A stretch of 64,000 nt of DNA from Escherichia coli. Lineage in GTDB: Bacteria > Pseudomonadota > Gammaproteobacteria > Enterobacterales > Enterobacteriaceae. Below the pieces are notes generated by a model, which was given only the letters and a program-made list of their open reading frames with translations, was not told the DNA's origin and ran no database searches. How positions within the stretch are numbered: position 1 is the first letter of the stretch; the number at the start of each line of letters is the position of its first letter. The position numbers and the translations under genes were made by a program. The DNA lies in NCBI RefSeq assembly GCF_003334255.1, contig NZ_QOWU01000001.1. One strand, given 5' to 3'. This document shows positions 16,842 to 62,523 of the stretch, piece by piece.

Positions 16842-17047
16842 TCATACAAATAAGATGACGGCATTTTACTCGCACGTTCCATGAAAATCCTTTGCAAAGC
16901 GTAATGTTTCAAATGCACAAAACTTTTATACTCTAAGAAATCAGGATTGCACCAGTACAAGCAGCCTGATGTTTGACGAGTATTTAACTTGTTATGAATA
17001 ACATAGAATAGCAGCCATTCACTTTTTCTACGAATCAGGAACCCTCC

Positions 17048-18328
17048 ATGAGTAAGTCTGAAAATCTTTACAGCGCAGCGCGCGAGCTGATCCCTGGCGG
17101 TGTGAACTCCCCTGTTCGCGCCTTTACTGGCGTGGGCGGCACTCCACTGTTTATCGAAAAAGCGGACGGCGCTTATCTGTACGATGTTGATGGCAAAGCC
17201 TATATCGATTATGTCGGTTCCTGGGGGCCGATGGTGCTGGGCCATAACCATCCGGCAATCCGCAATGCCGTGATTGAAGCCGCCGAGCGTGGTTTAAGCT
17301 TTGGTGCACCAACCGAAATGGAAGTGAAAATGGCGCAACTGGTGACCGAACTGGTCCCGACCATGGATATGGTGCGCATGGTGAACTCCGGCACTGAAGC
17401 GACCATGAGCGCCATCCGCCTGGCCCGTGGTTTTACCGGTCGCGACAAAATTATTAAATTTGAAGGGTGTTACCATGGTCACGCTGACTGCCTGCTGGTG
17501 AAAGCCGGTTCTGGCGCACTCACGTTAGGCCAGCCAAACTCGCCGGGCGTTCCGGCAGATTTCGCCAAACATACCTTAACCTGTACTTATAATGATCTGG
17601 CTTCTGTACGCGCCGCATTTGAGCAATACCCGCAAGAGATTGCCTGTATTATCGTCGAGCCGGTGGCAGGCAATATGAACTGTGTTCCGCCGCTGCCAGA
17701 GTTCCTGCCAGGTCTGCGCGCGCTGTGCGACGAATTTGGCGCGTTGCTGATCATCGATGAAGTGATGACCGGTTTCCGCGTAGCGCTAGCTGGCGCACAG
17801 GATTATTACGGCGTAGTGCCAGATTTAACCTGCCTCGGCAAAATCATCGGCGGTGGAATGCCGGTAGGCGCATTCGGTGGTCGTCGTGATGTAATGGATG
17901 CGCTGGCCCCGACGGGTCCGGTCTATCAGGCGGGTACGCTTTCCGGTAACCCGATTGCGATGGCAGCGGGTTTCGCCTGTCTGAATGAAGTCGCGCAGCC
18001 GGGCGTTCACGAAACGCTGGATGAGCTGACAACACGTCTGGCAGAAGGTCTGCTGGAAGCGGCAGAAGAAGCCGGAATTCCGCTGGTCGTTAACCACGTT
18101 GGCGGCATGTTCGGTATTTTCTTTACCGACGCCGAGTCCGTGACGTGCTATCAGGATGTGATGGCCTGTGACGTGGAACGCTTTAAGCGTTTCTTCCATA
18201 TGATGCTGGACGAAGGTGTTTACCTGGCACCGTCAGCGTTTGAAGCGGGCTTTATGTCCGTGGCGCACAGCATGGAAGATATCAATAACACCATCGATGC
18301 TGCACGTCGGGTGTTTGCGAAGTTGTGA
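17048..18328 (+). CDS. hemL: Glutamate-1-semialdehyde 2,1-aminomutase
   Basis: 426-aa [52 protein letters not shown]... Confidence 0.97.
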
Positions 18329-18337
18329 TCCAGCATG

Positions 18338-18470
<133 letters not shown>

Positions 18471-18485
18471 CGTTATATGGAAAAA

Positions 18486-20468
18486 TTAACGGCTCTGCTT
18501 TCTCAACAAATAGATAAAATATGGCGCGCCGATAAAGGTTGACAGCAGCCCCGCCGGGATCTGGAATGGAAACAGCACCATCCGCCCACACCAGTCAGCG
18601 AACACCAGCAGTAAACCACCCACCAGCGCCGAAATTACGATGTGTGGCATCGTCCGTCGAAAGCCCATCATCCGCGCAATATGCGGTGCCATTAAACCAA
18701 CAAAACTCAACGGTCCAATAGTCATCGTCGCGGTCGCCGTCAGGCAAGCCGCTAACAGCAGCAGCGCAATTCGCGTCGGCGTCAGCGCCATTCCTACGGC
18801 TCGGGCGGTATCACCACCCAGCGGTAAAATGGTCAGCCAGCGGCGGCACAGCGGGGTAATCGCCAGCAAAATCACCATCACAATTCCGGTGCGCCAGACC
18901 TGCGCATCGGTCGCGTTGTAGGTCGAACCGGAAATCCAGGTCAGCACTTGCGCCATTCGCGGGTCACCACTTGCCTGCAACATCATCAAAAGCATGGTGA
19001 ACGCGGTGCTTAACGCCATCCCCGCCAGTAACATACGGTGTGGGGAAAATCCACCGCGGCCGGCGGCGATCATAATGATCAACAGCGTCACCGCCGCGCC
19101 GAGACTGCCTGCAGGTAACAGCCAGCCAAAGGCATTACCCGGCACCAGAAACAGCATCAACACCACGCCAAACGCCGCGCCGGAGCTAATCCCCAGCACT
19201 TCCGGGCTTGCCATCGGGTTTCCGGTCAGTCGCTGAATAATACAGCCCGCCACCGCCAGCATGACGCCCGCAAACAGCGCCGCCATAATTCGCGGCCAGC
19301 GCCAGGGCATTAAATCCTCGAGCAACGCCCCGCTCGCCCACGTCCAGCCGTGCGCATCACGACCAAACGACAGCGCCACCACCACAGCCATCAACAGCAG
19401 CACGCCGCCCGCGAGGGCAAACGCCAGCACATGTTGGCGTTCAGCCGCGACACGATCGTTGACCTTCATATCCGGCGCGCTAATGCTGCGTAAACGCGGC
19501 AACAGCCACAGTAGCAGCGGCGCACCGATCAACGCAGTGACCGAACCGGTGGACACTTCCATCCACACGCGAGTCAGCCAGAGGATGATTTGATCGGAAA
19601 GCCAGAGGATCAGCGCACCAATCAACGACGCCAGCATCAGTCGTGGCAGCAGACGCCGCGCCCCCAGCATTTTTGCCAGCAGCGGCGCGAACAACCCGAT
19701 AAAGCCGATAATCCCCACAGCGTTCACCAGCAGCGCACTGATGACAATCGCCAGCGACAGCGCCGCCAGACGCGCAAGCGACAAGGCCAGCCCGAGATTG
19801 CGCGCCACGCCATCATCAAGCCCCATCAGGGTTAACGGACGAAGTAGCAGCAACGTCAGCATCACACCGCCCAGCAGCTGCGGCCATAAACGCTCAACGC
19901 CGCCCCAGTCGGTTTGCGTCAGCGTTCCAGTGCTCCACAGAAACATGCTTTGCAGTTGGTCATGATGGAAGATAACCAGTAACTGATTGATTGCGCCGCA
20001 ATAAAGGCTCACTACCAACCCCGCGAGAATCAGCGTTACCGGCGACAGCCGTTTCCCCCACGCGACGCCAAAGACAATTAAGCCAACAACACAAGCCCCT
20101 GCCAGCGCAGCAAACTGGCTCGCCATCGCACCAGGGATCGCCCAGAGCGTAGTGACGGTAATCCCCAGTTGCGCGCCTGTAGCAACGCCAAGCGTCGTCG
20201 GCTCCGCCAGCGGGTTACGCAGCACTTGCTGAAACAGCACGCCCACCAGCCCCAGACCCGCGCCCACCAGCAGCGAAATCGCCAGACGCGGCAACAAGCT
20301 GTAGTGAAAAATCATCTGCTCGATGACGTCAATATCCGGCGACCAGGCAGCCTGCGCCCACTGGCTACGCGGCAGCGCCTGCGAGAAGTTCATCCAGGTG
20401 AGCGCCGTAGCGACAATCACTAACAGCGCCAGCAATAACGCCGGGAAAAGCGCAATTCGTTTACTCAC
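18486..20468 (-). CDS. fhuB: Ferric hydroxamate ABC transporter permease (fused double-domain)
   Basis: 660-aa highly hydrophobic ORF MSKRIALFPALLLALLVIVATALTWMNFSQALPRSQW... Confidence 0.95.
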   Translation of the reverse strand: MSKRIALFPALLLALLVIVATALTWMNFSQALPRSQWAQAAWSPDIDVIEQMIFHYSLLPRLAISLLVGAGLGLVGVLFQQVLRNPLAEPTTLGVATGAQLGITVTTLWAIPGAMASQFAALAGACVVGLIVFGVAWGKRLSPVTLILAGLVVSLYCGAINQLLVIFHHDQLQSMFLWSTGTLTQTDWGGVERLWPQLLGGVMLTLLLLRPLTLMGLDDGVARNLGLALSLARLAALSLAIVISALLVNAVGIIGFIGLFAPLLAKMLGARRLLPRLMLASLIGALILWLSDQIILWLTRVWMEVSTGSVTALIGAPLLLWLLPRLRSISAPDMKVNDRVAAERQHVLAFALAGGVLLLMAVVVALSFGRDAHGWTWASGALLEDLMPWRWPRIMAALFAGVMLAVAGCIIQRLTGNPMASPEVLGISSGAAFGVVLMLFLVPGNAFGWLLPAGSLGAAVTLLIIMIAAGRGGFSPHRMLLAGMALSTAFTMLLMMLQASGDPRMAQVLTWISGSTYNATDAQVWRTGIVMVILLAITPLCRRWLTILPLGGDTARAVGMALTPTRIALLLLAACLTATATMTIGPLSFVGLMAPHIARMMGFRRTMPHIVISALVGGLLLVFADWCGRMVLFPFQIPAGLLSTFIGAPYFIYLLRKQSR

Positions 20469-21355
20469 GCTTTACCTCCGATGGCGTTATCCAGAACGCG
20501 CACAAAGTGCATTGCCGAGAGCGTCGCACCATAAAACCAGACTGCAGGTACGCGCTGAAAGCGTCCGGCGCGGACAAACGGCATGGCCTGCCACAGCGGC
20601 GTTGCCATTAGCGCATCCATGTCTTTGCTGTTGTCGTGATCAAAACAGAGCACATCAACGTCTTTATACGCCGCCAGACGATCGATACTGACGGCGGTAC
20701 TGCCCCAGAAGTTGGTTTCCCCTTGCCAGGCATTTGGGATGCCGTACTCATCAAGAATTTCCTGGAACAAGCTGTTTGGACCGAAGACCAGCATATGGCG
20801 CGGATCGATAAGCGTCGTCAGCAATAACGGACGCGCACCACGCTTCACAAAGCGGGGTTTCATGCTGCGGATAAAGTCTTCATATTGCGCTAAATGCGTT
20901 TCCGCTGCGCTTTGCAGGTTAAGTAAATCTGCCATTTCCGTCAGCGATTTACGCGCCATCGCCAACGGCTGTTTGCCGTCACTGAAGTTAAATCCGCGAC
21001 CCGGCGCAATACGAGCCAGCATTTCTGGTGAAGGGCCATATCCTGCCGACCAGACCATAAACGATGGTTTCATTTCGGTCAGCAGTTCAAGGTTAGGTTC
21101 TGTGCGCAAACCGACGTCGATCACTGAGTCCGGCAATGGTGGTTCGCTGACCCACAGGCGATAGTTGATGGTATCCGCCACGCCGTAAGGCACGATGCCG
21201 AGCGCCAGCAGTAATTCCACCGGCAACCACTCCAGCGCCACAATACGATTGGGATCAATAGCCGCCGCGTGGGCGGTATTCATCTGCCATAACAACGGAG
21301 AAAGCGCCATCGCCGTTAACAGTCGACGGCGCGAAATAAGAGGTAAGCCGCTCAT
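20465..21355 (-). CDS. fhuD: Ferric hydroxamate periplasmic binding protein
   Basis: ORF-track entry 20465..21358 contains MSGLPLISRRRLLTAMALSPLLWQMNTAHA...; trimmed to the ATG giving 296 aa. Confidence 0.93.
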   Translation of the reverse strand: MSGLPLISRRRLLTAMALSPLLWQMNTAHAAAIDPNRIVALEWLPVELLLALGIVPYGVADTINYRLWVSEPPLPDSVIDVGLRTEPNLELLTEMKPSFMVWSAGYGPSPEMLARIAPGRGFNFSDGKQPLAMARKSLTEMADLLNLQSAAETHLAQYEDFIRSMKPRFVKRGARPLLLTTLIDPRHMLVFGPNSLFQEILDEYGIPNAWQGETNFWGSTAVSIDRLAAYKDVDVLCFDHDNSKDMDALMATPLWQAMPFVRAGRFQRVPAVWFYGATLSAMHFVRVLDNAIGGKA

Positions 21356-22152
21356 CAATAAACAAAACTCACAGGTGCAGCACCCGCCGGATGCGGCAAA
21401 ATACCCATCGGGATGCCATAAATCATTTCGAGGGTTTCGCCGCGCATAATTTCCGCAGGCGTTCCCTGAGCAATCATTTCACCGCCGCGCAGGGCGACCA
21501 GATAATCACAGTAGCGTGCCGCCATATTGATATCGTGCAACACGGCAATGACCGTCAGGCCACGCTCCTGACTTAAACGGTGCACCAGCGACAGCACATC
21601 AACCTGGTGGGCGATATCCAGCGCCGAGGTCGGTTCGTCGAGCAACAGACAACGGCTATCCTGCGCCACCAGCATGGCGATCCACGCCCGCTGACGTTCG
21701 CCGCCAGAGAGACTATCGACCAGCCGATGCGCCAGCGGTTTTAAGCCAACCAGCGAGATAGCTTCCTCGACTTTTTCGCGATCTGCCGCCCCAAAGCGCC
21801 CCAGCGCGCCATGCCACGGGTAACGACCAATCGCCACCAGTTCACGCACGGTCATCCCTTCTGCCGGAGGAAGCTGCTGCGGCAAATAAGCCACTTTGCG
21901 GGCAAACGCTTTGCTGCTCCAGCTTTCCAGCGGTTGGGCATCAAGAAGAATCTCCCCTTCCGACGGCGGCTGATGACGGCCAAGCATTTTGAGCAGAGTG
22001 GATTTACCAGAACCGTTGTGACCAATCAGACCGGTCACTTTCCCGGCAGGAAAGGTTAACGACAGCGGATGCAAAAGCGTGCGCCCGGGCACACGAAAGG
22101 AGATATTACGCAGTGCAAAAGTGGTATCGGAATGATTCGTGTATTCCTGCAT
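21355..22152 (-). CDS. fhuC: Ferric hydroxamate ABC transporter ATP-binding protein
   Basis: ORF-track entry 21355..22194 contains MQEYTNHSDTTFALRNISFRVPGRTLL... with Walker A GHNGSGKST; trimmed to 265 aa. Confidence 0.93.
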   Translation of the reverse strand: MQEYTNHSDTTFALRNISFRVPGRTLLHPLSLTFPAGKVTGLIGHNGSGKSTLLKMLGRHQPPSEGEILLDAQPLESWSSKAFARKVAYLPQQLPPAEGMTVRELVAIGRYPWHGALGRFGAADREKVEEAISLVGLKPLAHRLVDSLSGGERQRAWIAMLVAQDSRCLLLDEPTSALDIAHQVDVLSLVHRLSQERGLTVIAVLHDINMAARYCDYLVALRGGEMIAQGTPAEIMRGETLEMIYGIPMGILPHPAGAAPVSFVY

Positions 22153-22202
22153 AACAGCCAACTTGTGAAATGGGCACGGAAATCCGTGCCCCAAAAGAGA
22201 AA

Positions 22203-24446
22203 TTAGAAACGGAAGGTTGCGGTTGCAACGACCTGACGTTCTGCGCCCCAGAAGCAGCCATAAGTGTTAAAGCAGCTGGCGACGTATTCACGATCGAACA
22301 GGTTGTTAACATGCAGCGCCACGTTGGAGCCAGCCATGCCGACTCGCGCCAGATCATAACGTACTAACGCATCCACGACCGTATAACTTCCCACTTTAAA
22401 GGAGTTAGCCGGATCACCATAACTGGAGCCAGTATAACGACCACCGGTGCCCAGCGTCAGACCTGAAAGCGGACCGTCAAAGAAGGTGTAGTCAGCCCAC
22501 AACGAAGCCATGTGTTTTGGCACCTGTGCAGGCGTATTGCCTTTATAGGTAGTATCGGTGGTGTATTCCGCATCGGTGTAAGTATAAGAACCGACTACGT
22601 TAACACTCGCCGACAGCGCCGCTTTCGCTTCGATTTCTACGCCACGTGCGCGGATCTCGCCACCTTCAACCGAGAAGAAGGAACCCTCAGGGTCCGCCAT
22701 CAGGTTGTTGGTTTTAGTGAGATTATACACGGCACCAGTAACTACAATCGGACGATCTTCCGGTACATATTTCACGCCGACTTCATACTGCTTACCTTTA
22801 GACGGTGCGAAAATATTACCATCCTTCCCAACTTGCGAAGAAGGTTCAAACGATTCGCTATAGCTGAAGTAAGGTGTTACACCATTATCAAACAGGTAGT
22901 TAACACCACCACGCCAGGTAAACTGTTTGTCATCACGTTTATCGGTCGTCCCGGCAACGCGGTTAAGAGATTCTTGATCTGCCCAGTCATAACGACCGCC
23001 TAGGGTGACCAGCACTTTATCCCACTGCGCCTGATCCTGAACATAAACGCCCGTTTGTTTCTGTTTATTCAGAATGCGGTAAGGGCCGGAGTTTGCCGGA
23101 TCTTTGGCATTGAAGTCGAAATCGGTATTCACCGGATTGTACAGATTGAGCAGTGGCACAGAGTCGTCGTAACCAAACCAGGCGTTGATGTCATTACGCA
23201 TACGCATAAAGTCGACACCGGTCAGCAGGGTGTGGTCGATATCGCCAGTGGCAAACTTGCTCTGCAACTGGGTATCAACGGAGAAGTTTTGCAGCTTCTC
23301 ATCATCAACGACGTATTTACGTGCCAGATAATGGCCTTTATCCGCTGGCGCTAATGCCGCACACTGTTTGCTGTAAGCATTCGCCGGATCGGAGCAGACG
23401 CCGTAACCATAAACGCTGTTTTGCGAGGTTTTGTTTTCAGCAAAGCGCAGGTTCTGACGCACAGTAAAGGTGTCGTTAAATTCGTGATCGAAGCTGTAGC
23501 CGACCATCTTCTCATTACGAGAATAGGTGTTGTTCTTCGCCCCTTCATTAAAGTCTGTCGGCAGACGCTTACCGTTCGGCAGCGGCTCAACGGTTCCCTC
23601 TTTCGGCAACCAGCCGTAATAACCGGTTTCCGGCTCGTTCTGGAAGTAAGAAAGGAAGGTAAAATTGGTTTTATCATCCGGACGCCAGGTGAACGCCGGT
23701 GCAATAGCATAACGCTGCTCTTCTGACCCTTTCTGCTGGGCATTGGCAGAACGCGCAAGACCGGTCAGGCGATAAGAGTAAACACCGTCATCATCCAACG
23801 AATCGCTAAAGTCAAAACCAGTCTGGAACAGGCTGTCAGTACCGGCTTTAAACTGAACTTCTTTCAGCGGTTCGGTGGTCGGACGCTTGCTGACCATATT
23901 CAACAGGCCGCCAGGACTGCTTTTACCGTAAAGCACGGAAACCGGGCCACGCATAATTTCAGCGCGTTCCAGCATATACGGGTCAATGACCGCATCGTTA
24001 TAGAAGTTGCCCTGCAACTTCAGGCCATTCAGATAGTTATTCTGGCTTTGGCCTTCTGCCGCAAAGCCGCGAATGATCAGGTGGTCATAGGTGTTGGATG
24101 CGCCACGCGTACCAACAGAGACACCCGGCGTGTAGCTAAGCGCTTCTTTTACCGACTTCGGCTGATGCAGCGCCATCTCTTCGGCGGTCACAACAGAAAT
24201 AGACTGTGGCACTTTTTGAATCGGCGTATCGGTTTTAGTGCCGGTAGCAGACTGTCGCGCCGCAATAGTTGCAGCAGGCCCCCATGCGCTTTCTTGCGGC
24301 GCAGGTGCAGCGGTAACGGTGATAGTGTCTTCTTTCGGTTCAACCGCTGCCTGTGCATAAACAGACATGCCGCTAACCGCTGTGGCTACTACAACTGCGA
24401 TTTTACGCAGTGAGTGTTTTGGCTGAGCAGTTTTGGAACGCGCCAT
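22203..24446 (-). CDS. fhuA: Ferrichrome outer-membrane transporter (TonB-dependent receptor)
   Basis: 747-aa ORF MARSKTAQPKHSLRKIAVVVATAVSGMSVYAQAAVEPKEDTITVTAAPAPQ... ending in the terminal aromatic ...ATATFRF. Confidence 0.97.
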   Translation of the reverse strand: MARSKTAQPKHSLRKIAVVVATAVSGMSVYAQAAVEPKEDTITVTAAPAPQESAWGPAATIAARQSATGTKTDTPIQKVPQSISVVTAEEMALHQPKSVKEALSYTPGVSVGTRGASNTYDHLIIRGFAAEGQSQNNYLNGLKLQGNFYNDAVIDPYMLERAEIMRGPVSVLYGKSSPGGLLNMVSKRPTTEPLKEVQFKAGTDSLFQTGFDFSDSLDDDGVYSYRLTGLARSANAQQKGSEEQRYAIAPAFTWRPDDKTNFTFLSYFQNEPETGYYGWLPKEGTVEPLPNGKRLPTDFNEGAKNNTYSRNEKMVGYSFDHEFNDTFTVRQNLRFAENKTSQNSVYGYGVCSDPANAYSKQCAALAPADKGHYLARKYVVDDEKLQNFSVDTQLQSKFATGDIDHTLLTGVDFMRMRNDINAWFGYDDSVPLLNLYNPVNTDFDFNAKDPANSGPYRILNKQKQTGVYVQDQAQWDKVLVTLGGRYDWADQESLNRVAGTTDKRDDKQFTWRGGVNYLFDNGVTPYFSYSESFEPSSQVGKDGNIFAPSKGKQYEVGVKYVPEDRPIVVTGAVYNLTKTNNLMADPEGSFFSVEGGEIRARGVEIEAKAALSASVNVVGSYTYTDAEYTTDTTYKGNTPAQVPKHMASLWADYTFFDGPLSGLTLGTGGRYTGSSYGDPANSFKVGSYTVVDALVRYDLARVGMAGSNVALHVNNLFDREYVASCFNTYGCFWGAERQVVATATFRF

Positions 24447-24479
24447 TGGTATATCTCTGATGTAAAGTGAATGATAACG

Positions 24480-24520
24480 TAAACGAGAATGATTATTATA
24501 AAGATAAGATAATATTCGAA
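24480..24520 (-). promoter_or_regulatory. Candidate Fur box / fhuA promoter region
   Basis: AT-rich segment with overlapping GATAAT/ATCATT-like hexamers (minus strand reads ...TTATCTTATCTTTATAATAATCATTCTCGTTTACGTTATCATTCAC...) 35-75 nt upstream of the fhuA ATG. Confidence 0.45.
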
Positions 24521-24665
24521 ACGCTGGCGGGTTCGCAAGCGGTACGCAATCTGAGCGTTCCTGAAGGGTTAATAAACAACCAGATGAAAAGAAAGGGTTA
24601 ATATCTTAGATGGGATGTTATTTTACCGGATGGCAACTCGCCATCCGGTATTTCACGCTTAGATG

Positions 24666-27200
24666 TTAATTACTACCAAACATATCCTTGATCCAACCGG
24701 CTACACCGTCGCTGTCTTTCTGCTCTTGCTGAGCAGGTTGCTGTTGCGGCTGTTGCTGCGGCTGAGAAGACTGATCAAACGGATTGCCTGACGGCTGCTG
24801 CTGCATCTCGCTCTGCTGGCACAGCGATTGCGGATCGCTGGTCCAGACCGGCAAGATACGCATGCCACCGCTGCAAACAAAGTTGCCGTCGTAGTCCACG
24901 CCCATATCTGCAATATCTTCTGGCGGAACAAGATTCAGCGGCGTTGGCGTCTGGTTAGCCAGATAACGCTGATAAATCGACATTGCCCCGCTGGCACCAT
25001 ACAGTTTGGTCGGCTGGTTGTTATCACGGCCGACCCAGGTGATGGTCACCGTGCTGCCGTCAATGCCCGCAAACCAGGTATCTACGTTATTGTTGGTAGT
25101 CCCTGTTTTCCCTGCCAGATGCAGGTTCGGGTATTTCGCCCCAAGCTGACGACCCGTACCGCGTTGTACCACCTGCTGCATGGTCCATAGTGTCAGATAC
25201 GCCGCCTGCGCCGGAACAGCGCGTTCCGCCTGCGGGAAGCTCTGATACAGCACTTTGCCATCTTCCGCGATTACCGAACGCAGCGCAGAAAGCGGTGCAC
25301 GGTTACCACCGCTGGCGATGGTCTGGAATGCCTGCGCCACTTCGATTGGCGTTAAGTTCAACGCCCCCAGCAGCATTGCCGGAACCGGATGCAACTGATC
25401 TTTCGGTACGCCCAGTTTAATCCAGGTCTCCGTAACCGCAGGCAGCCCCAGCGCCATCCCCAGATTTACCGTCGGCACGTTCATCGAACGGGTCAACGCA
25501 TCCACCAGCATCACTCTGCCGCTTTCGCTATAACGACGGTCATCATTCTGCGGTGACCAGACCTGGCCATTCGGCTGACGCAGCGCAATTGGCGCATCCG
25601 CAATCCACGTATTCAGACGATAGATTTTCGGCTGGCTTAAGGCCGTCAGATAAGTCGCTGGTTTTGCAAGGGAACCAATCGAACGACGCGCCTGCATCGC
25701 ACGGTTGTAGCCCGCAAACTGCGGCTCAGAACCTCCGACCATCGCACGAACTTCACCACTAAAGCGGTCGACGACCACAATCGCAGTTTCAAGATCGCTC
25801 AACTTACGCTGTTTCTTCAGTGCCGGAATGCCTTCCACGGCGGCTTTTTCTGCCGCGTCCTGGGCCACCGAGTCAAAGGTAGTGAAGATCTTCACGCCGG
25901 AGAGATCTTTTACCTTATCGCCCAGTTTTGCCTGCAGCTCCTGACGCACCAGTTGCATAAAGGCTGGCTGAGGAGAGATCACCCCACCGCGCGGCTGAAC
26001 CCCCAGCGGACGGGCACTCAACATGTCATAGAGTTCTTGATCAATAATCTGTTGCTGTTGCAGCAGACGCAGCACCAGATTACGTCGCTCCAGCGCCAGT
26101 TTTGGGTTACGCCACGGGTTGTAGATGGACGCCCCTTTCACCATACCGACTAACAGCGCCTGCTGGTCGAGGCTTAGCTCTTCTACCGGGCGACCAAAGT
26201 AATACAAGCTTGCCAGCGGGAAGCCGCGGATTTCGTTGTCGCCGCTCTGACCGAGATACACCTCGTTCATATACAGCTCAAGAATACGGTCTTTGCTGTA
26301 ACGCGCGTCCATGATCAGCGCCATGTAAGCTTCGTTCGCTTTACGCCAGTAAGAACGCTCGCTGGAGAGGAACAGGTTTTTCACCAGCTGTTGCGTCAGC
26401 GTACTCGCACCCTGTACCGTGCGTCCGGCGGTCAGGTTTGCCAGCACCGCACGTCCGATTGAGTAGAGACTGATTCCATCATGCTCGTAAAAATGACGGT
26501 CTTCTGTCGCCAGCAAAGTATCCACCAGCAAATCCGGGAAACCACTGCGCGGCACAAACAGACGCTGCTCACCGTTTGGCGAAGAGATCATGGTGATCAG
26601 ACGCGGATCAAGACGGAAGAAACCGAACTGACGGTTGTTCTCCATATTGACGATCGTCGCCAGATGATCGCCATCAAAGGTCAGACGCGCGCGCACCTGT
26701 CCTTCTTTACTGTCCGGGAAATCAAACGGACGGCGAATCATCTCAATGCTGTTGGCCTGCACGGTAAATTCGCCAGGACGGGTCATTTTCGACACCTGAC
26801 GATACTGGGTCGCCTCCAGCAGCTTCACCATCTCGTTCTTGCTGATGGTCATGTCTGGCTCAAGATTGACCATTCGGCCATAAACTGCCGCAGGCAGTTG
26901 CCAGACCTTGCCATCAATACGGCTACGAATTTTTTGATCGAGATAAACGCCGTAAATGGCGATCAGCACGGCAAAAACGATAGCCAGTTTTAGCAGTAGC
27001 CATAGCCAGCCGCGTTTGCCACGAGGCTTACGCCCTTTGCCTTTGCCCTTACCTTTGCGCGGCATCGGTTCTTCATCCTCATAGTCATCATAATCGTCGT
27101 AATCATCGTCATCTTCGTAACGACGACGGCTTACCTTTTGTTTGACCGGACGCGTCGGTTTCCCTTTGCGTCCAATTGGCTCGCGGTCATTCCCGGCCAT
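24666..27200 (-). CDS. mrcB: Penicillin-binding protein 1B (bifunctional glycosyltransferase/transpeptidase)
   Basis: ORF-track entry 24666..27215 contains [56 protein letters not shown]...; trimmed to 844 aa. Confidence 0.95.
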
Positions 27201-27296
27201 GCTTTTTCTCCGCAATATTCAGGCGCAAAAGCCCGATTTTCTGTTCTTCTGTTACAAGACAGAAGAAGATATCTCTCAAAATTTGTGCTCGATCGG

Positions 27297-27385
27297 TCCC
27301 CTCTCCCTTGAGGGAGAGGGTTAGGGTGAGGGTGAACGTGCGCGCTGATGCCCTCACCCCGGCCCTCTCCCACAGGGAGAGGGAG
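27297..27385. repeat. GC-rich nested palindromic intergenic repeat (three consecutive hairpins; boxC/RSA-like, family not verified)
   Basis: CCCTCTCCC-TTG-AGGGAGAGGG, then GGGTGAGGGTGA...CCCTCACCCC, then CCCTCTCCC-ACAG-GGAGAGGGAG, in the hrpB-mrcB spacer. Confidence 0.5.
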
Positions 27386-27395
27386 AAAACCAACC

Positions 27396-29825
27396 TTACG
27401 AATACTTTTTCGTCCGTCGCGTCGGTGCAGTATTTGCCGGGTCGTCCGGCCAGACATGTTTGGGATAACGCCCTTTCATCTCTTTTTGCACCTCACGGTA
27501 CGCTCCTTTCCAGAAGGCGCTCAAATCTCGTGTGATTTGTAATGGCCTTTGGGCAGGTGAAAGCAACTCCAGCACCAGCGGCACGCGCCCCTGGGCGATC
27601 GTCGGATTGGTGGCCTCGCCAAACATCTCTTGCATTCTCACCGCCAGCGCGGGCGGGTTATCTTCATGATAACGAATGGCGATCCGGCTTCCCGTCGGCA
27701 CAGTGTAATGCGCAGGCAATTCACTATCCAGACGTTGCTGCATTCCCCAATCAAGTAATCCGCGTAGTGCCTGATAAATGTCGAGTGATTTCAGGCCGCG
27801 TAGTGAATGTACGCCAGTCATATGTGGCAGCAGCCACGTTTCCAGCGCTGCCAATAAACTTTCATCATCAACCGCTGGCCAGTCATATTCCGGCAACCAC
27901 TTTGCGGCGCATAACAAACGCAAGCGTAGCTGTTCCGCTTCCGCCGTCCAGTTGAGCACGCTTAAACCTTTATCACGGATGCCATTAAGCATCGCCTGAT
28001 GCAACTCGTCTTCTGACGGTTTCGCCAGCGGCTGCATTTTCACCGTCAACTGACCGATTTGTAGCCGACGCCAGGCTTTCAGCGTACCTTGCGCGTCATC
28101 CCACTCCACAGTGTCAGACTGCTGTACCAGCTGCGGGCAGCGTTGTACTAACTCATCAATATCGACCAGCAGCGCCAGTAAAATCCGCGCATCCGGCGAG
28201 GCGCTGCCCTGCAATAATAACGGTGCGATCAACCATTCGTGGCGGCTTAGCGCGTCGTTGGCATCGAGCATCGCTCCCATGCCGTTTGCCAGTTGATAGC
28301 GTCCATCTTGCCCACGGCGACGAGCAATGCGATCGGCAAACGCCCCGGCAAGTAGCGGCGCGATAAGCGAACTGTCTGCCTCACCGCCACGTACGTTTAA
28401 GCGTTTTAACAGTTGCTGACTACGTTGCTGCCAGGCTGGTTGATTGCGCGAAAACGCCACGCCCAGGTCACTATTGCCCATCCGTGGCGGCTCTTCGAGA
28501 ATGGCGGCAATTTTTGCCGCGGTAGCAGCTTCGTCGTCGTTCTTCGCGCTAACCAGCATTGCCGCTAAACGCGGATCGTTACCCAGCGCTGCCATTTTTT
28601 GCCCTTGCGCACTAAGCCGTTCACCCTCCAGTGCCCCCAGCATTTGTAACAGACGTTTCGCGGCCAGTAGATTCACTACTGGCGGTTGATCCAGCCAGCT
28701 CATCTGCGCCGGATCGCTGCATCCCCATTGCAGTAATTCCATCAGCAAACCGGAAAGATCGCTTTGTAAGATCTCCGGTTCACTTTGCGCCGCGGCGCGT
28801 TCTGCTTGTTCTTTGGCGATTAAATGCAGGCTGATACCCGGCTCCAGACGCCCGGCGCGCCCGGCACGCTGCGTCATGGATGCCTGGCTAACGCGTTGAG
28901 TAATCAGTCGCGTAAGCCCCGTGCGCGGATCAAAACGCGCCACACGCTCCTGGGCACAATCCACCACCAGACGAATACCTTCAATGGTTAAACTGGTTTC
29001 AGCAATATTGGTCGCCAGCACCACTTTGCGCATCCCTTGCGGTGCCGGGAGGATCGCTTTTCGCTGATCGTTCAGCGACAACGCGCCATACAGCGGGCAG
29101 AGCAATACATCACTGCCGATGCGCGAAGCCAGTTGTTCCTGCACACGCTGAATTTCTCCGACGCCAGGTAAAAATAACAGTAATGATCCGCTTTCCTGAC
29201 GCAGCATTTCAGCGGTGGCTACCGCAACGGCATCGTCAAAACGCTGATGCGCGGGCAGCGGTAAATAACGGCGTTCAACCGGAAACGAGCGCCCTTCTGA
29301 GATGACGACAGGCGCTTCTGGCAGCATTTGCTGCAAGCGGTCGTTGTCCAGGGTAGCCGACATAATCAGCAGTTTAAGGTCATCACGCAGACCTTGTTGC
29401 ACATCGAGTAACAGCGCCAACGCCAAATCCGCCTGCAAGCTGCGCTCATGAAATTCATCAAGGATCACCAGTCCAACACCGCTCAGTTCCGGGTCACGCT
29501 GGATCATGCGCGTCAGCACGCCTTCGGTAACCACTTCCAGGCGGGTATTCGGCCCGACGCAGTTTTGCGCACGCATCCGGTAGCCAACGGTATCGCCTGG
29601 CTTTTCGTTAAGCAGCTCCGCCAGCCGTTGCGCGACGTTACGCGCCGCCAGACGACGCGGCTCCAGCAGGATAATTTTCCCGTTAATGCCGGGATGCGCC
29701 AGCAGTTGCAGCGGCAGCCAGGTTGATTTCCCGGCCCCGGTCGGCGCACTTAATAATACCTGCGGCGCACAATCGAGAGCGGTAAGTAATTCAGGTAAGA
29801 CGGCAGCAACGGGCAACGACGACAC
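27396..29825 (-). CDS. hrpB: ATP-dependent RNA helicase HrpB (DEAH-box)
   Basis: ORF-track entry 27396..29870 contains ...SSLPVAAVLPELLTALDCAPQVLLSAPTGAGKST...DEFHERS...; trimmed to a GTG start giving 809 aa. Confidence 0.9.
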   Translation of the reverse strand: MSSLPVAAVLPELLTALDCAPQVLLSAPTGAGKSTWLPLQLLAHPGINGKIILLEPRRLAARNVAQRLAELLNEKPGDTVGYRMRAQNCVGPNTRLEVVTEGVLTRMIQRDPELSGVGLVILDEFHERSLQADLALALLLDVQQGLRDDLKLLIMSATLDNDRLQQMLPEAPVVISEGRSFPVERRYLPLPAHQRFDDAVAVATAEMLRQESGSLLLFLPGVGEIQRVQEQLASRIGSDVLLCPLYGALSLNDQRKAILPAPQGMRKVVLATNIAETSLTIEGIRLVVDCAQERVARFDPRTGLTRLITQRVSQASMTQRAGRAGRLEPGISLHLIAKEQAERAAAQSEPEILQSDLSGLLMELLQWGCSDPAQMSWLDQPPVVNLLAAKRLLQMLGALEGERLSAQGQKMAALGNDPRLAAMLVSAKNDDEAATAAKIAAILEEPPRMGNSDLGVAFSRNQPAWQQRSQQLLKRLNVRGGEADSSLIAPLLAGAFADRIARRRGQDGRYQLANGMGAMLDANDALSRHEWLIAPLLLQGSASPDARILLALLVDIDELVQRCPQLVQQSDTVEWDDAQGTLKAWRRLQIGQLTVKMQPLAKPSEDELHQAMLNGIRDKGLSVLNWTAEAEQLRLRLLCAAKWLPEYDWPAVDDESLLAALETWLLPHMTGVHSLRGLKSLDIYQALRGLLDWGMQQRLDSELPAHYTVPTGSRIAIRYHEDNPPALAVRMQEMFGEATNPTIAQGRVPLVLELLSPAQRPLQITRDLSAFWKGAYREVQKEMKGRYPKHVWPDDPANTAPTRRTKKYS

Positions 29826-60669: not shown

Positions 60670-62523
60670 ATGAAAATGACTTTGCCGTTTAAACCCCATG
60701 TGCTGGCGCTAATTTGCAGTGCCGGGCTTTGTGCCGCCTCTACCGGGCTATATATAAAAAGCCGCACAGTGGAAGCGCCTGTGGAACCGCAATCGACACA
60801 ACTGGCTGTGTCTGACGCTGCCGCGGTTACGTTTCCTGCAACGGTTTCCGCACCTCCCGTAACACCCGCCGTCGTCAAATCCGCATTCAGCACTGCACAA
60901 ATAGATCAATGGGTCGCGCCCGTCGCGCTGTATCCCGACGCCCTACTTTCGCAGGTGCTGATGGCATCAACCTATCCGACAAACGTTGCTCAAGCAGTGC
61001 AATGGTCGCACGATAATCCACTTAAACAAGGCGATGCTGCTATTCAGGCGGTATCTGACCAGCCGTGGGACGCCAGCGTTAAATCACTGGTGGCCTTTCC
61101 ACAATTGATGGCATTGATGGGCGAAAACCCGCAATGGGTGCAAAACCTGGGCGATGCTTTTCTGGCCCAGCCGCAGGACGTGATGGACTCGGTACAGCGA
61201 TTGCGGCAACTGGCGCAACAAACCGGCTCGCTGAAGTCATCAACCGAACAGAAAGTTATTACCACAACGAAGAAAGCTGTACCGGTAAAACAGACAGTCA
61301 CGGCACCCGTCATACCATCCAATACAGTTTTAACTGCCAACCCCGTCATTACAGAGCCGGCAACAACCGTCATTTCCATTGAGCCCGCCAATCCTGATGT
61401 GGTCTATATTCCCAACTACAACCCAACCGTGGTTTACGGGAACTGGGCCAATACTGCGTATCCGCCGGTTTATCTGCCACCACCAGCCGGAGAACCGTTT
61501 GTTGACAGCTTTGTACGCGGATTCGGCTATAGCATGGGCGTTGCTACCACGTACGCACTATTCAGCAGCATCGACTGGGACGACGACGATCATGACCATC
61601 ATCATCATGACAATGATGATTATCATCACCACGATGGCGGTCATCGTGACGGTAATGGCTGGCAACACAACGGCGACAACATCAATATCGACGTCAACAA
61701 TTTCAACCGTATCACCGGTGAGCATCTTACTGATAAGAATATGGCATGGCGGCACAATCCAAACTACCGTAATGGTGTGCCCTATCATGATCAGGATATG
61801 GCAAAGCGGTTTCATCAAACCGATGTCAACGGCGGAATGAGCGCCACGCAATTACCTGCCCCAACGCGCGACAGCCAGCGTCAGGCGGCAGCAAATCAGT
61901 TTCAGCAACGAACACACGCCGCACCAGTCATTACACGAGATACCCAACGTCAGGCAGCGGCACAGCGGTTTAATGAAGCTGAACACTATGGGAGCTATGA
62001 CGACTTCCACGACTTCAGCCGTCGCCAACCACTGACCCAGCAACAAAAGGACGCCGCTCGTCAGCGTTATCAGTCCGCCTCGCCTGAGCAGCGCCAGGCA
62101 GTTCGCGAGAGAATGCAGACTAACCCGAAGATCCAGCAGCGAAGAGAGGCAGCGCGTGAGCGCATTCAGTCCGCCTCGCCTGAGCAGCGCCAGGCGGTTC
62201 GCGAGAAAATGCAGACTAACCCGCAGAACCAGCAGCGAAGAGACGCAGCGCGTGAGCGTATTCAGTCCGCATCACCAGAGCAGCGCCAGGTGTTTAAGGA
62301 AAAAGTACAGCAGCGCCCACTGAATCAACAGCAACGTGATAACGCCCGCCAGCGTGTTCAATCGGCATCACCTGAACAACGTCAGGTTTTTCGGGAGAAA
62401 GTTCAGGAGAGCCGCCCACAACGTCTAAACGACAGTAACCATACTGTCAGGCTGAATAACGAGCAACGGTCAGCAGTATGCGAACGTCTCTCTGAACGTG
62501 GAGCAAGAAGACTGGAAAGGTAA
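60670..62523 (+). CDS. yacH: Secreted repeat-containing protein YacH (function unknown)
   Basis: 617-aa ORF with signal peptide MKMTLPFKPHVLALICSAGLCAAS, a His/Asp-rich segment and C-terminal tandem ~29-aa repeats (...SASPEQRQAVRE[K/R]MQTNP...). Confidence 0.85.
   Translation: MKMTLPFKPHVLALICSAGLCAASTGLYIKSRTVEAPVEPQSTQLAVSDAAAVTFPATVSAPPVTPAVVKSAFSTAQIDQWVAPVALYPDALLSQVLMASTYPTNVAQAVQWSHDNPLKQGDAAIQAVSDQPWDASVKSLVAFPQLMALMGENPQWVQNLGDAFLAQPQDVMDSVQRLRQLAQQTGSLKSSTEQKVITTTKKAVPVKQTVTAPVIPSNTVLTANPVITEPATTVISIEPANPDVVYIPNYNPTVVYGNWANTAYPPVYLPPPAGEPFVDSFVRGFGYSMGVATTYALFSSIDWDDDDHDHHHHDNDDYHHHDGGHRDGNGWQHNGDNINIDVNNFNRITGEHLTDKNMAWRHNPNYRNGVPYHDQDMAKRFHQTDVNGGMSATQLPAPTRDSQRQAAANQFQQRTHAAPVITRDTQRQAAAQRFNEAEHYGSYDDFHDFSRRQPLTQQQKDAARQRYQSASPEQRQAVRERMQTNPKIQQRREAARERIQSASPEQRQAVREKMQTNPQNQQRRDAARERIQSASPEQRQVFKEKVQQRPLNQQQRDNARQRVQSASPEQRQVFREKVQESRPQRLNDSNHTVRLNNEQRSAVCERLSERGARRLER
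62050..62405 (+). repeat. Tandem ~87-bp coding repeats (about 4 copies) inside yacH
   Basis: Near-identical consecutive units containing CAGTCCGCCTCGCCTGAGCAGCGCCAGGC[A/G]GTTCGCGAGA[G/A]AATGCAGACTAACCCG; the first two copies are nearly identical at the DNA level. Confidence 0.6.

Follow-up and report, generated by a model that had tools for sequence, protein, structure and literature searches.

The locus described here is almost certainly fhuACDB, the Fur-repressed operon for ferric-hydroxamate uptake, on the chromosome of an Escherichia coli that is phylogroup-A-like and lies very near K-12. Both the operon and its Fur control are textbook material; the copy at hand is the K-12 allele and adds nothing new to what is already known. 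The window—the whole stretch of DNA analysed, 64,000 nucleotides (64 kb) in length—is 99.96% identical to positions 127930..191940 of MG1655, and the 6.4-kb fhu region within it is 99.97% identical, with fhuA, fhuC, fhuD and the mrcB-fhuA intergenic region all at 100% nucleotide identity. The same four genes are annotated by RefSeq in thousands of genomes (identical hits). An earlier note, made from the sequence alone, had called the operon well-known biology; that observation is correct, its reading is supported, and its content is fully known. The operon comprises the following genes.

22203..24446, minus strand: fhuA, TonB-dependent ferrichrome transporter of the outer membrane and predicted phage and colicin M receptor (747 aa; 100% nucleotide identity to MG1655 b0150)
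21355..22152, minus strand: fhuC, ABC transporter ATPase (265 aa; 100% identical to b0151)
20465..21355, minus strand: fhuD, periplasmic hydroxamate-binding protein (296 aa; 100% identical to b0152)
18486..20468, minus strand: fhuB, fused double permease with a GTG start (660 aa; two SNPs relative to MG1655)

The lengths, starts and stops of these genes match those of b0150-b0153 in MG1655, in line with the earlier description of the gene lengths as canonical. The same description had given the operon a span of 20465..24520; the genes were placed correctly, but the body of fhuB (18486..20464) was left out and the promoter is included only to about -32.

The identities of the four genes are borne out both by the DNA, which is 99.97% identical to fhuACDB of MG1655, and by the proteins, which score above their NCBIfam equivalog cut-offs. 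FhuA reaches 1473 bits against NF007465 (cut-off 803), with residues 1-747 covered, and 688 bits against TIGR01783 (cut-off 223.5); it matches the PDB chains 1by3, 2fcp and 8a60, and its residues 34-747 align with the mature FhuA chains 1by3 and 2fcp. A TonB box, defined as an N-terminal DTITV following the signal peptide, is present—gaagacactatcaccgtt, some 38 codons into the reading frame, encodes EDTITV. FhuC scores 577 bits against NF007863 (cut-off 433) and has the Walker A motif GHNGSGKST encoded at about 22023..21997, while FhuD scores 553 bits against NF007864 (cut-off 252). FhuB scores 1422 bits against NF007865 (cut-off 1107) and matches chain B of PDB 7lb8, which is FhuB in the FhuCDB complex, across residues 1-660; FecC, FecD and BtuC each match one half of FhuB only. 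In such a system FhuA would import ferrichrome through the outer membrane using TonB, FhuD would ferry it across the periplasm, and the FhuB/FhuC ABC transporter would carry it over the inner membrane.

This combination of TonB-dependent receptor, periplasmic binding protein and ABC transporter is shared with other Fur-repressed siderophore-uptake operons, namely fepA-entD, fecABCDE, cirA and fhuE (PMC2189734, PMC10864483), where a Fur-box array likewise lies over the core promoter. In contrast to these, the fhu operon serves hydroxamate siderophores specifically, the receptor gene and the ABC transporter genes share a transcript, and FhuB is a 660-aa fused double permease rather than two separate polypeptides.

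The closest known counterpart is the MG1655 operon (b0150-b0153, promoter fhuAp), which has the same gene order, gene lengths, start and stop codons and 50-nt fhuA-fhuC spacer, and also the same TGATG and GTGA gene junctions, promoter and Fur operator. Only two bases differ, both in fhuB. At position 20104, codon 122 reads CTG (Leu) in the window, against CAG (Gln) in MG1655 (Q122L), and at position 19764 there is a synonymous change at codon 235. Each of the eight other E. coli sequences examined has Leu122; since seven divergent alleles and the 7lb8 structure carry it, the MG1655 glutamine is the outlier.

Our conservation comparisons cover eight E. coli alleles, seven of them described as divergent. 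FhuA falls to 62% protein identity across the compared strains, whereas hardly any variation is seen in FhuC, FhuD, the promoter or the gene junctions; the contrast points to sharply unlike selection within a single operon. Divergent FhuA beside a near-invariant remainder of the operon is a pattern already known. A search for substitutions in the receptor loops, which the earlier note had proposed, gave none, because fhuA is identical to its MG1655 counterpart at every nucleotide. On the strength of this identity to the K-12 protein, FhuA is expected to transport ferrichrome and to serve as the phage and colicin M receptor here; the strain should thus be K-12-like in its sensitivity to phages T1, T5 and phi80, colicin M, microcin J25 and albomycin, as well as in ferrichrome uptake.

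Expression of the operon is controlled from the region between mrcB and fhuA, in which a single sigma-70 promoter would drive fhuACDB. The elements that we recognise in and around this promoter are given below, with positions relative to the start site in brackets.

24585..24599, minus strand: homologue of the distal HypT site, AACCCTTTCTTTTCA (-111..-97)
24479..24509, no strand assigned: Fur operator, overlapping Fur-box 19-mers at 6-nt spacing in a 31-bp cluster, from a consensus scan with shuffles
24495..24500, minus strand: -10 hexamer TATAAT of the fhuA promoter (-12..-7), read directly from the sequence and positioned by way of the inferred start site
24488, minus strand: inferred fhuA transcription start, giving a 42-nt leader
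24468..24482, minus strand: proximal HypT site, TTACGTTATCATTCA (+7..+21)

The start site was back-calculated from the HypT footprints published for Salmonella (PMC6397515). The footprinted intervals +7..+21 and -111..-97 map to 24482..24468 and 24599..24585, and both imply the same start. This route runs through a Salmonella paper with numbering taken from E. coli; position 24488 would be precise to about 1-2 nt. The proximal site is an exact match, unique in the window, to a sequence footprinted in Salmonella (PMC6397515), and the distal site differs from its footprinted equivalent by one mismatch and is the sole match in the window (PMC6397515). Both sites of the Salmonella Typhimurium fhuA promoter are therefore present here, with equal spacing to each other and to the gene; HypT binding is known only from the Salmonella protein and DNA, and for our sequence it is a prediction from the matches. 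A generic promoter scan favours a different pair, TTGCGA-18-TATTAT at 24538..24509, with an implied start near 24502; we give it less weight because it conflicts with the literature-derived start site. The same scan performed at chance level in this region (5 promoter-like sites against 3.8 +/- 2.0 expected), as did a terminator scan (11 terminator-like sites against 8.2 expected). The segment from 24540 to the fhuA ATG, including the -10 TATAAT, is conserved in the eight alleles, with variation at just two bases, 24505..24506.

A Fur-box-like array had been noted 35-75 nt upstream of fhuA (24481..24521), and it is indeed there. We took as a Fur box either a match to the 19-bp consensus GATAATGATAATCATTATC or at least three GATAAT-like hexamers in an array. 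The best 19-mer, CTTTATAATAATCATTCTC at 24503..24485, matches the consensus at 14 of 19 positions and spans -15..+4; it is flanked by further matches offset by 6 nt, on both strands, which together form the three-site, 31-bp cluster at 24479..24509. Counting consensus matches alone proved non-discriminating, with many sites in the window at 12-15 of 19, and the three-site cluster score was therefore assessed against shuffles. Over 2000 dinucleotide-shuffled versions of the 219-bp mrcB-fhuA intergenic region (exactly 24447..24665), an equal or better single 19-mer arose with P = 0.023 and an equal or better three-site cluster with P = 0.001; elsewhere in the 64-kb window an equal score is found only in a GAT/CAT-rich coding repeat within yacH.

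Could the resemblance have arisen by chance from the A+T richness of the promoter region, with no working operator behind it? The intergenic region is 61% A+T, and a single 14/19 match is unremarkable, since the window holds about a dozen 19-mers with at least 14 matches. The cluster, however, is better than 99.9% of the shuffles, and the array is unchanged across divergent alleles bar the two bases at 24505..24506. More directly, Chen et al. (2007) place the fhuA Fur cluster at K-12 coordinate 167439, position -45, as three sites over 31 bp, and confirmed it by a gel shift of the identical sequence with purified Fur (PMC2189734). This K-12 coordinate corresponds to 24491 in the window, so that the array found here coincides with the experimentally confirmed one. 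Promoter-lacZ fusions and RT-qPCR in delta-fur strains also show that fhuA is derepressed without Fur (PMC4676285, PMC7315122). A chance origin is in effect refuted by these published data on the identical sequence, and we consider its probability negligible. We discarded one further source as evidence for this sequence, in that the 'PfhuA' of PMC3621691 is a Vibrio cholerae promoter. A working operator is thus the reading that we retain, and none of our observations speaks against it or against the gene assignments. The best 19-mer covers both the -10 TATAAT and the inferred start site, and the operator hence overlaps the core promoter. With ample iron, Fe2+-Fur would occupy the overlapping boxes at 24479..24509, which extend over the -10 hexamer and the start site, and so exclude RNA polymerase; under iron limitation, Fur would depart and fhuACDB would be transcribed.

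Classical genetics treats the four fhu genes as one Fur-regulated operon. Within it, the 50-nt spacer between fhuA and fhuC holds a conserved structure.

22172..22191, minus strand: GC-rich hairpin GGGCACGG-AUUU-CCGUGCCC in the fhuA-fhuC spacer (fold of the whole spacer -22.1 kcal/mol, z = -3.0)

The hairpin has an 8-bp GC stem, invariant in the eight alleles, and this conserved structure 3' of fhuA may cut read-through or stabilise the fhuA message. It raises the question of whether fhuA and fhuCDB are partly separate units, with the hairpin terminating or processing most transcripts and fhuCDB expressed by read-through or from an internal promoter. A weak promoter-like site in the 3' part of fhuA (22460..22431, 9 of 12 positions) fits such an arrangement, but promoter-like sites occur at the chance count given above, and the hairpin has no T-run (U-tract) after its stem and was not called by the terminator scan. 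The classical genetics also speaks for a single unit, as does the joint response of fhuA and fhuC to HypT in Salmonella (PMC6397515). We regard partly separate units as quite unlikely and keep to a single fhuACDB operon.

Within this operon, two gene pairs overlap, as had been reported earlier, by 1 nt at fhuC/fhuD and by 4 nt at fhuD/fhuB; both overlaps are real.

21353..21357, minus strand: fhuC/fhuD junction TGATG, where the fhuC TGA (21357..21355) and the fhuD ATG (21355..21353) share base 21355
20465..20479, minus strand: fhuD/fhuB junction, with a Shine-Dalgarno GGAGG at 20479..20475, a 6-nt spacer and the overlap GTGA at 20468..20465 (fhuB GTG 20468..20466; fhuD TGA 20467..20465)

From these arrangements, translational coupling in fhuCDB is plausible, and the two junctions differ in what they suggest. 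There is no detectable Shine-Dalgarno sequence upstream of fhuD (-2.2 kcal/mol, the operon background being -2.8 +/- 2.1 kcal/mol), whereas fhuB has a strong GGAGG within fhuD, with an anti-Shine-Dalgarno duplex of -10.8 kcal/mol; values of -9 kcal/mol or lower occur in only 0.5% of the 22-mers of the operon. The lack of a Shine-Dalgarno sequence at fhuD, with an ATG whose first base is also the last of the fhuC stop, favours reinitiation; most likely, ribosomes finishing fhuC restart there to translate fhuD. The fhuB overlap is no proof of dependence and need not be functional, since the gene has its own strong Shine-Dalgarno sequence; initiation there would probably occur both by coupling and de novo.

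The overlaps may instead reflect mere genome compaction, with FhuD and FhuB initiated independently and no functional coupling. Such overlaps are commonplace—by the K-12 annotation, four other gene pairs in the window overlap, two by 4 nt (yadG/yadH, folK/pcnB) and two by 8 nt (btuF/mtn, yadW/erpA)—and the strong Shine-Dalgarno sequence of fhuB fits independent initiation. Folding of the two junctions is no stronger than that of shuffled sequence (z = -0.15 and -0.65), and structure masking either start codon thus receives no support; a literature search found no paper testing coupling in fhuCDB. What compaction leaves unexplained is fhuD, with Shine-Dalgarno energy at background level and its ATG set directly on the fhuC stop. 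Both junctions are also strictly invariant in the eight alleles, a point of little weight given that FhuC and FhuD are highly conserved overall. On balance we judge compaction alone to be unlikely, and continue to favour coupling, chiefly at fhuD.

A further possibility combines the two features: subunit ratios could be set purely post-transcriptionally, with the hairpin either terminating part of the transcription or providing a 3' end that stabilises the mRNA (FhuA in excess of FhuCDB) and fhuD wholly dependent on reinitiation. We offer this as a tentative and rather doubtful proposal; in the literature searched, neither the role of the hairpin nor the reinitiation dependence of fhuD appears to have been directly tested.

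An Rfam scan of 17000..28000 (E-value mode) gave no RNA family in the fhu operon or its leader; the only matches were to REP-like elements (naRNA4), downstream of fhuB and below threshold, and to microRNAs by chance. Outside the fhu operon, the most unusual thing seen in the window is in dgt, which carries, in the interval 11800..11900, an apparent 10-bp frameshifting deletion, real or an assembly error, that has no counterpart among 5,422 complete E. coli genomes.

The fhuACDB ferrichrome-uptake system is already known, and the copy in the window is the K-12 allele. Its four genes, called from an ORF listing together with direct reading of the sequence, are as follows:

24446..22203, minus strand: fhuA, 747 aa
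22152..21355, minus strand: fhuC, 265 aa
21355..20465, minus strand: fhuD, 296 aa
20468..18486, minus strand: fhuB, 660 aa, GTG start

In the mechanical ORF list, fhuC and fhuD begin farther upstream, at TTG codons; their canonical lengths come from the annotated ATG starts. MG1655 gene coordinates give equal lengths and equal 1-nt and 4-nt overlaps, so the canonical gene lengths reported in the earlier note hold. That note's operon is likewise borne out by observation and supported in interpretation—its span, however, omits fhuB, and the minus strand should be added. All four products pass the NCBIfam equivalog cut-off, each for its own named family; FhuA matches solved FhuA structures, FhuB matches an FhuCDB cryo-EM entry, and a TonB box in FhuA and a Walker A motif in FhuC can be read in the sequence. 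The operon is flanked upstream by mrcB, which ends at 24666, and downstream by hemL on the opposite strand. By megablast, 18400..24700 is found in 5,425 of 5,426 complete E. coli genomes, with many matches 100% identical and all annotated mrcB-fhuA-fhuC-fhuD-fhuB.

The window as a whole is 99.96% identical to MG1655 127930..191940, with which it aligns in reverse orientation. Every base of fhuA, fhuC, fhuD, and mrcB is identical to MG1655; hence the receptor-loop substitutions in FhuA for which a check had been suggested are absent relative to K-12. The 6.4-kb region contains two base differences from MG1655, both in fhuB: a synonymous change at 19764, and codon 122 (window 20104), which reads Leu (CTG) in the window versus Gln (CAG) in MG1655. 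Seven divergent E. coli alleles likewise carry Leu122, as does the solved FhuB structure 7lb8, which makes MG1655, and not the window, the outlier at this position.

Across those seven alleles FhuA is hypervariable (729-752 aa, with protein identity to the window down to 62%), its variable columns lying mostly past residue 60 and peaking near 340-380 and 420-460, while FhuC and FhuD retain at least 97.6% identity in the same strains. In the DH5alpha assembly NZ_CP026085.1, the match falls in two pieces with an IS4-like ISVsa5-family transposase annotated within the fhuA region; an insertion sequence appears to disrupt fhuA there.

Both proposed gene overlaps can be read directly: the fhuC stop TGA (21357..21355) and the fhuD ATG (21355..21353) have one base in common, and the fhuB GTG (20468..20466) and the fhuD TGA (20467..20465) give an overlap of 4 nt. 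The two junction sequences are unchanged across the seven divergent alleles, and neither junction region folds more stably than its shuffled counterparts. Such overlaps are commonplace—four more annotated pairs in the window have overlaps of 4 or 8 nt. The junctions are told apart by pairing energy with the 16S rRNA 3' end, our measure of Shine-Dalgarno strength (operon background -2.8 +/- 2.1 kcal/mol):

fhuA start: -2.9 kcal/mol, weak
fhuC start: -3.3 kcal/mol, weak
fhuD start: -2.2 kcal/mol, no recognisable Shine-Dalgarno
fhuB start: -10.8 kcal/mol, strong GGAGG six bases 5' of the GTG

Judged from these sequence features, ribosomes ending fhuC very probably have to reinitiate for fhuD to be translated, whereas coupling at fhuB would be optional; the tight translational coupling proposed earlier is thus well founded for fhuD, which has no recognisable Shine-Dalgarno, but only optional for fhuB with its GGAGG. 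Our literature search found no direct test of fhuCDB translational coupling.

The Fur-box-like region described upstream of fhuA is a shuffle-significant cluster that coincides with a published gel-shift site. The best intergenic match to GATAATGATAATCATTATC lies at 24503..24485 (14/19), and matches offset by 6 nt on both strands build a 31-bp cluster at 24479..24509. A lone 14/19 match is not rare across the window; the three-site cluster is (P = 0.001, 2000 dinucleotide shuffles of the intergenic region). In Chen et al. 2007, a fhuA cluster of three Fur sites over 31 bp is listed at K-12 167439 (position -45 relative to the gene) and confirmed by gel shift; this coordinate is window 24491. 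Promoter-lacZ fusions and delta-fur RT-qPCR have established that fhuA repression is Fur-dependent. In the 64 kb the fhuA cluster is the top non-repeat cluster, equalled only by a GAT/CAT-rich coding repeat in yacH.

In yacH (61579..61640 and 62070..62413), that Asp/His repeat reaches 15/19 and cluster scores of 39-40, as high as a true Fur box, and near it lies a separate internal repeat with a 96-nt offset and 80% identity. Together, the yacH repeats give rise to false positives when a sequence is scanned for Fur boxes.

The position of the start site follows from two HypT sites footprinted on the Salmonella fhuA promoter at +7..+21 and -111..-97, in numbering whose start site was taken over from E. 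coli (PMC6397515). Each occurs once in the window, the proximal site exactly (24482..24468) and the distal site with one mismatch (24599..24585), and both positions give one common inferred fhuA start, 24488. This start sets the -10 hexamer as TATAAT at 24500..24495, a leader of 42 nt, and the Fur 19-mer at -15..+4. A generic promoter scan also offers the pair TTGCGA-18-TATTAT, which we regard as a formal possibility. With the start at 24488, the Fur 19-mer lies over the -10 and start site—classic promoter occlusion. Folding of the fhuA leader gave no structure. From 24540 to the fhuA ATG the sequence is nearly invariant in the eight alleles compared, including two strains with a fimbrial gene, not mrcB, upstream.

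In those two strains, S21EC (L003 1..422) and the EPEC E2348/69-derived EPEC1 (L006 1..439), the fimbrial protein gene takes the place of mrcB directly 5' of fhuA, and likeness to the window is confined on this side to roughly the last 150 nt before the fhuA ATG. Just past the mrcB stop, 24625..24649 (minus strand) holds a perfect 10-bp stem, ACCGGATGGC-GAGTT-GCCATCCGGT, without a U-tract; it may be an mrcB terminator or a REP-like hairpin, and is missing from the alleles with the fimbrial gene upstream of fhuA.

Within the operon, the fhuA-fhuC spacer contains an 8-bp GC stem at 22191..22172 (spacer fold z = -3.0) that is invariant in the eight alleles; because no U-tract follows, any attenuating or stabilising role is conjectural. 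Between fhuB and hemL, at the operon's 3' end, 18337..18457 gives sub-threshold Rfam matches to naRNA4 on both strands; naRNA4 derives from REP elements, and this region is a REP cluster.

Elsewhere in the window, dgt (minus strand, about 12693..11186) has a 10-bp deletion relative to MG1655 at 11851/11852. Loss of GAGAAAAGAA (MG1655 180079..180088) shifts the frame, and the 505-aa dGTPase is broken into two ORFs, one of 320 aa (11731..12693) and another of 211 aa (11186..11821). When a 120-nt probe spanning the junction was compared with 5,422 complete E. coli genomes, none matched it exactly, and the deletion is therefore private to the window sequence; all 5,422 align to the probe at 92.3%, equivalent to a 10-nt gap, and the best 25-kb matches are identical to the window apart from this deletion. 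Either this is truly a dGTPase-null mutant or the deletion is an error of assembly. A 1-nt deletion at 3281, in the glnD-map intergenic region (MG1655 188660 G), looks like an ordinary polymorphism; by record spans, the state seen in the window (25010 bases) appears to be shared by some near-identical genomes and not by KL53 (25011).
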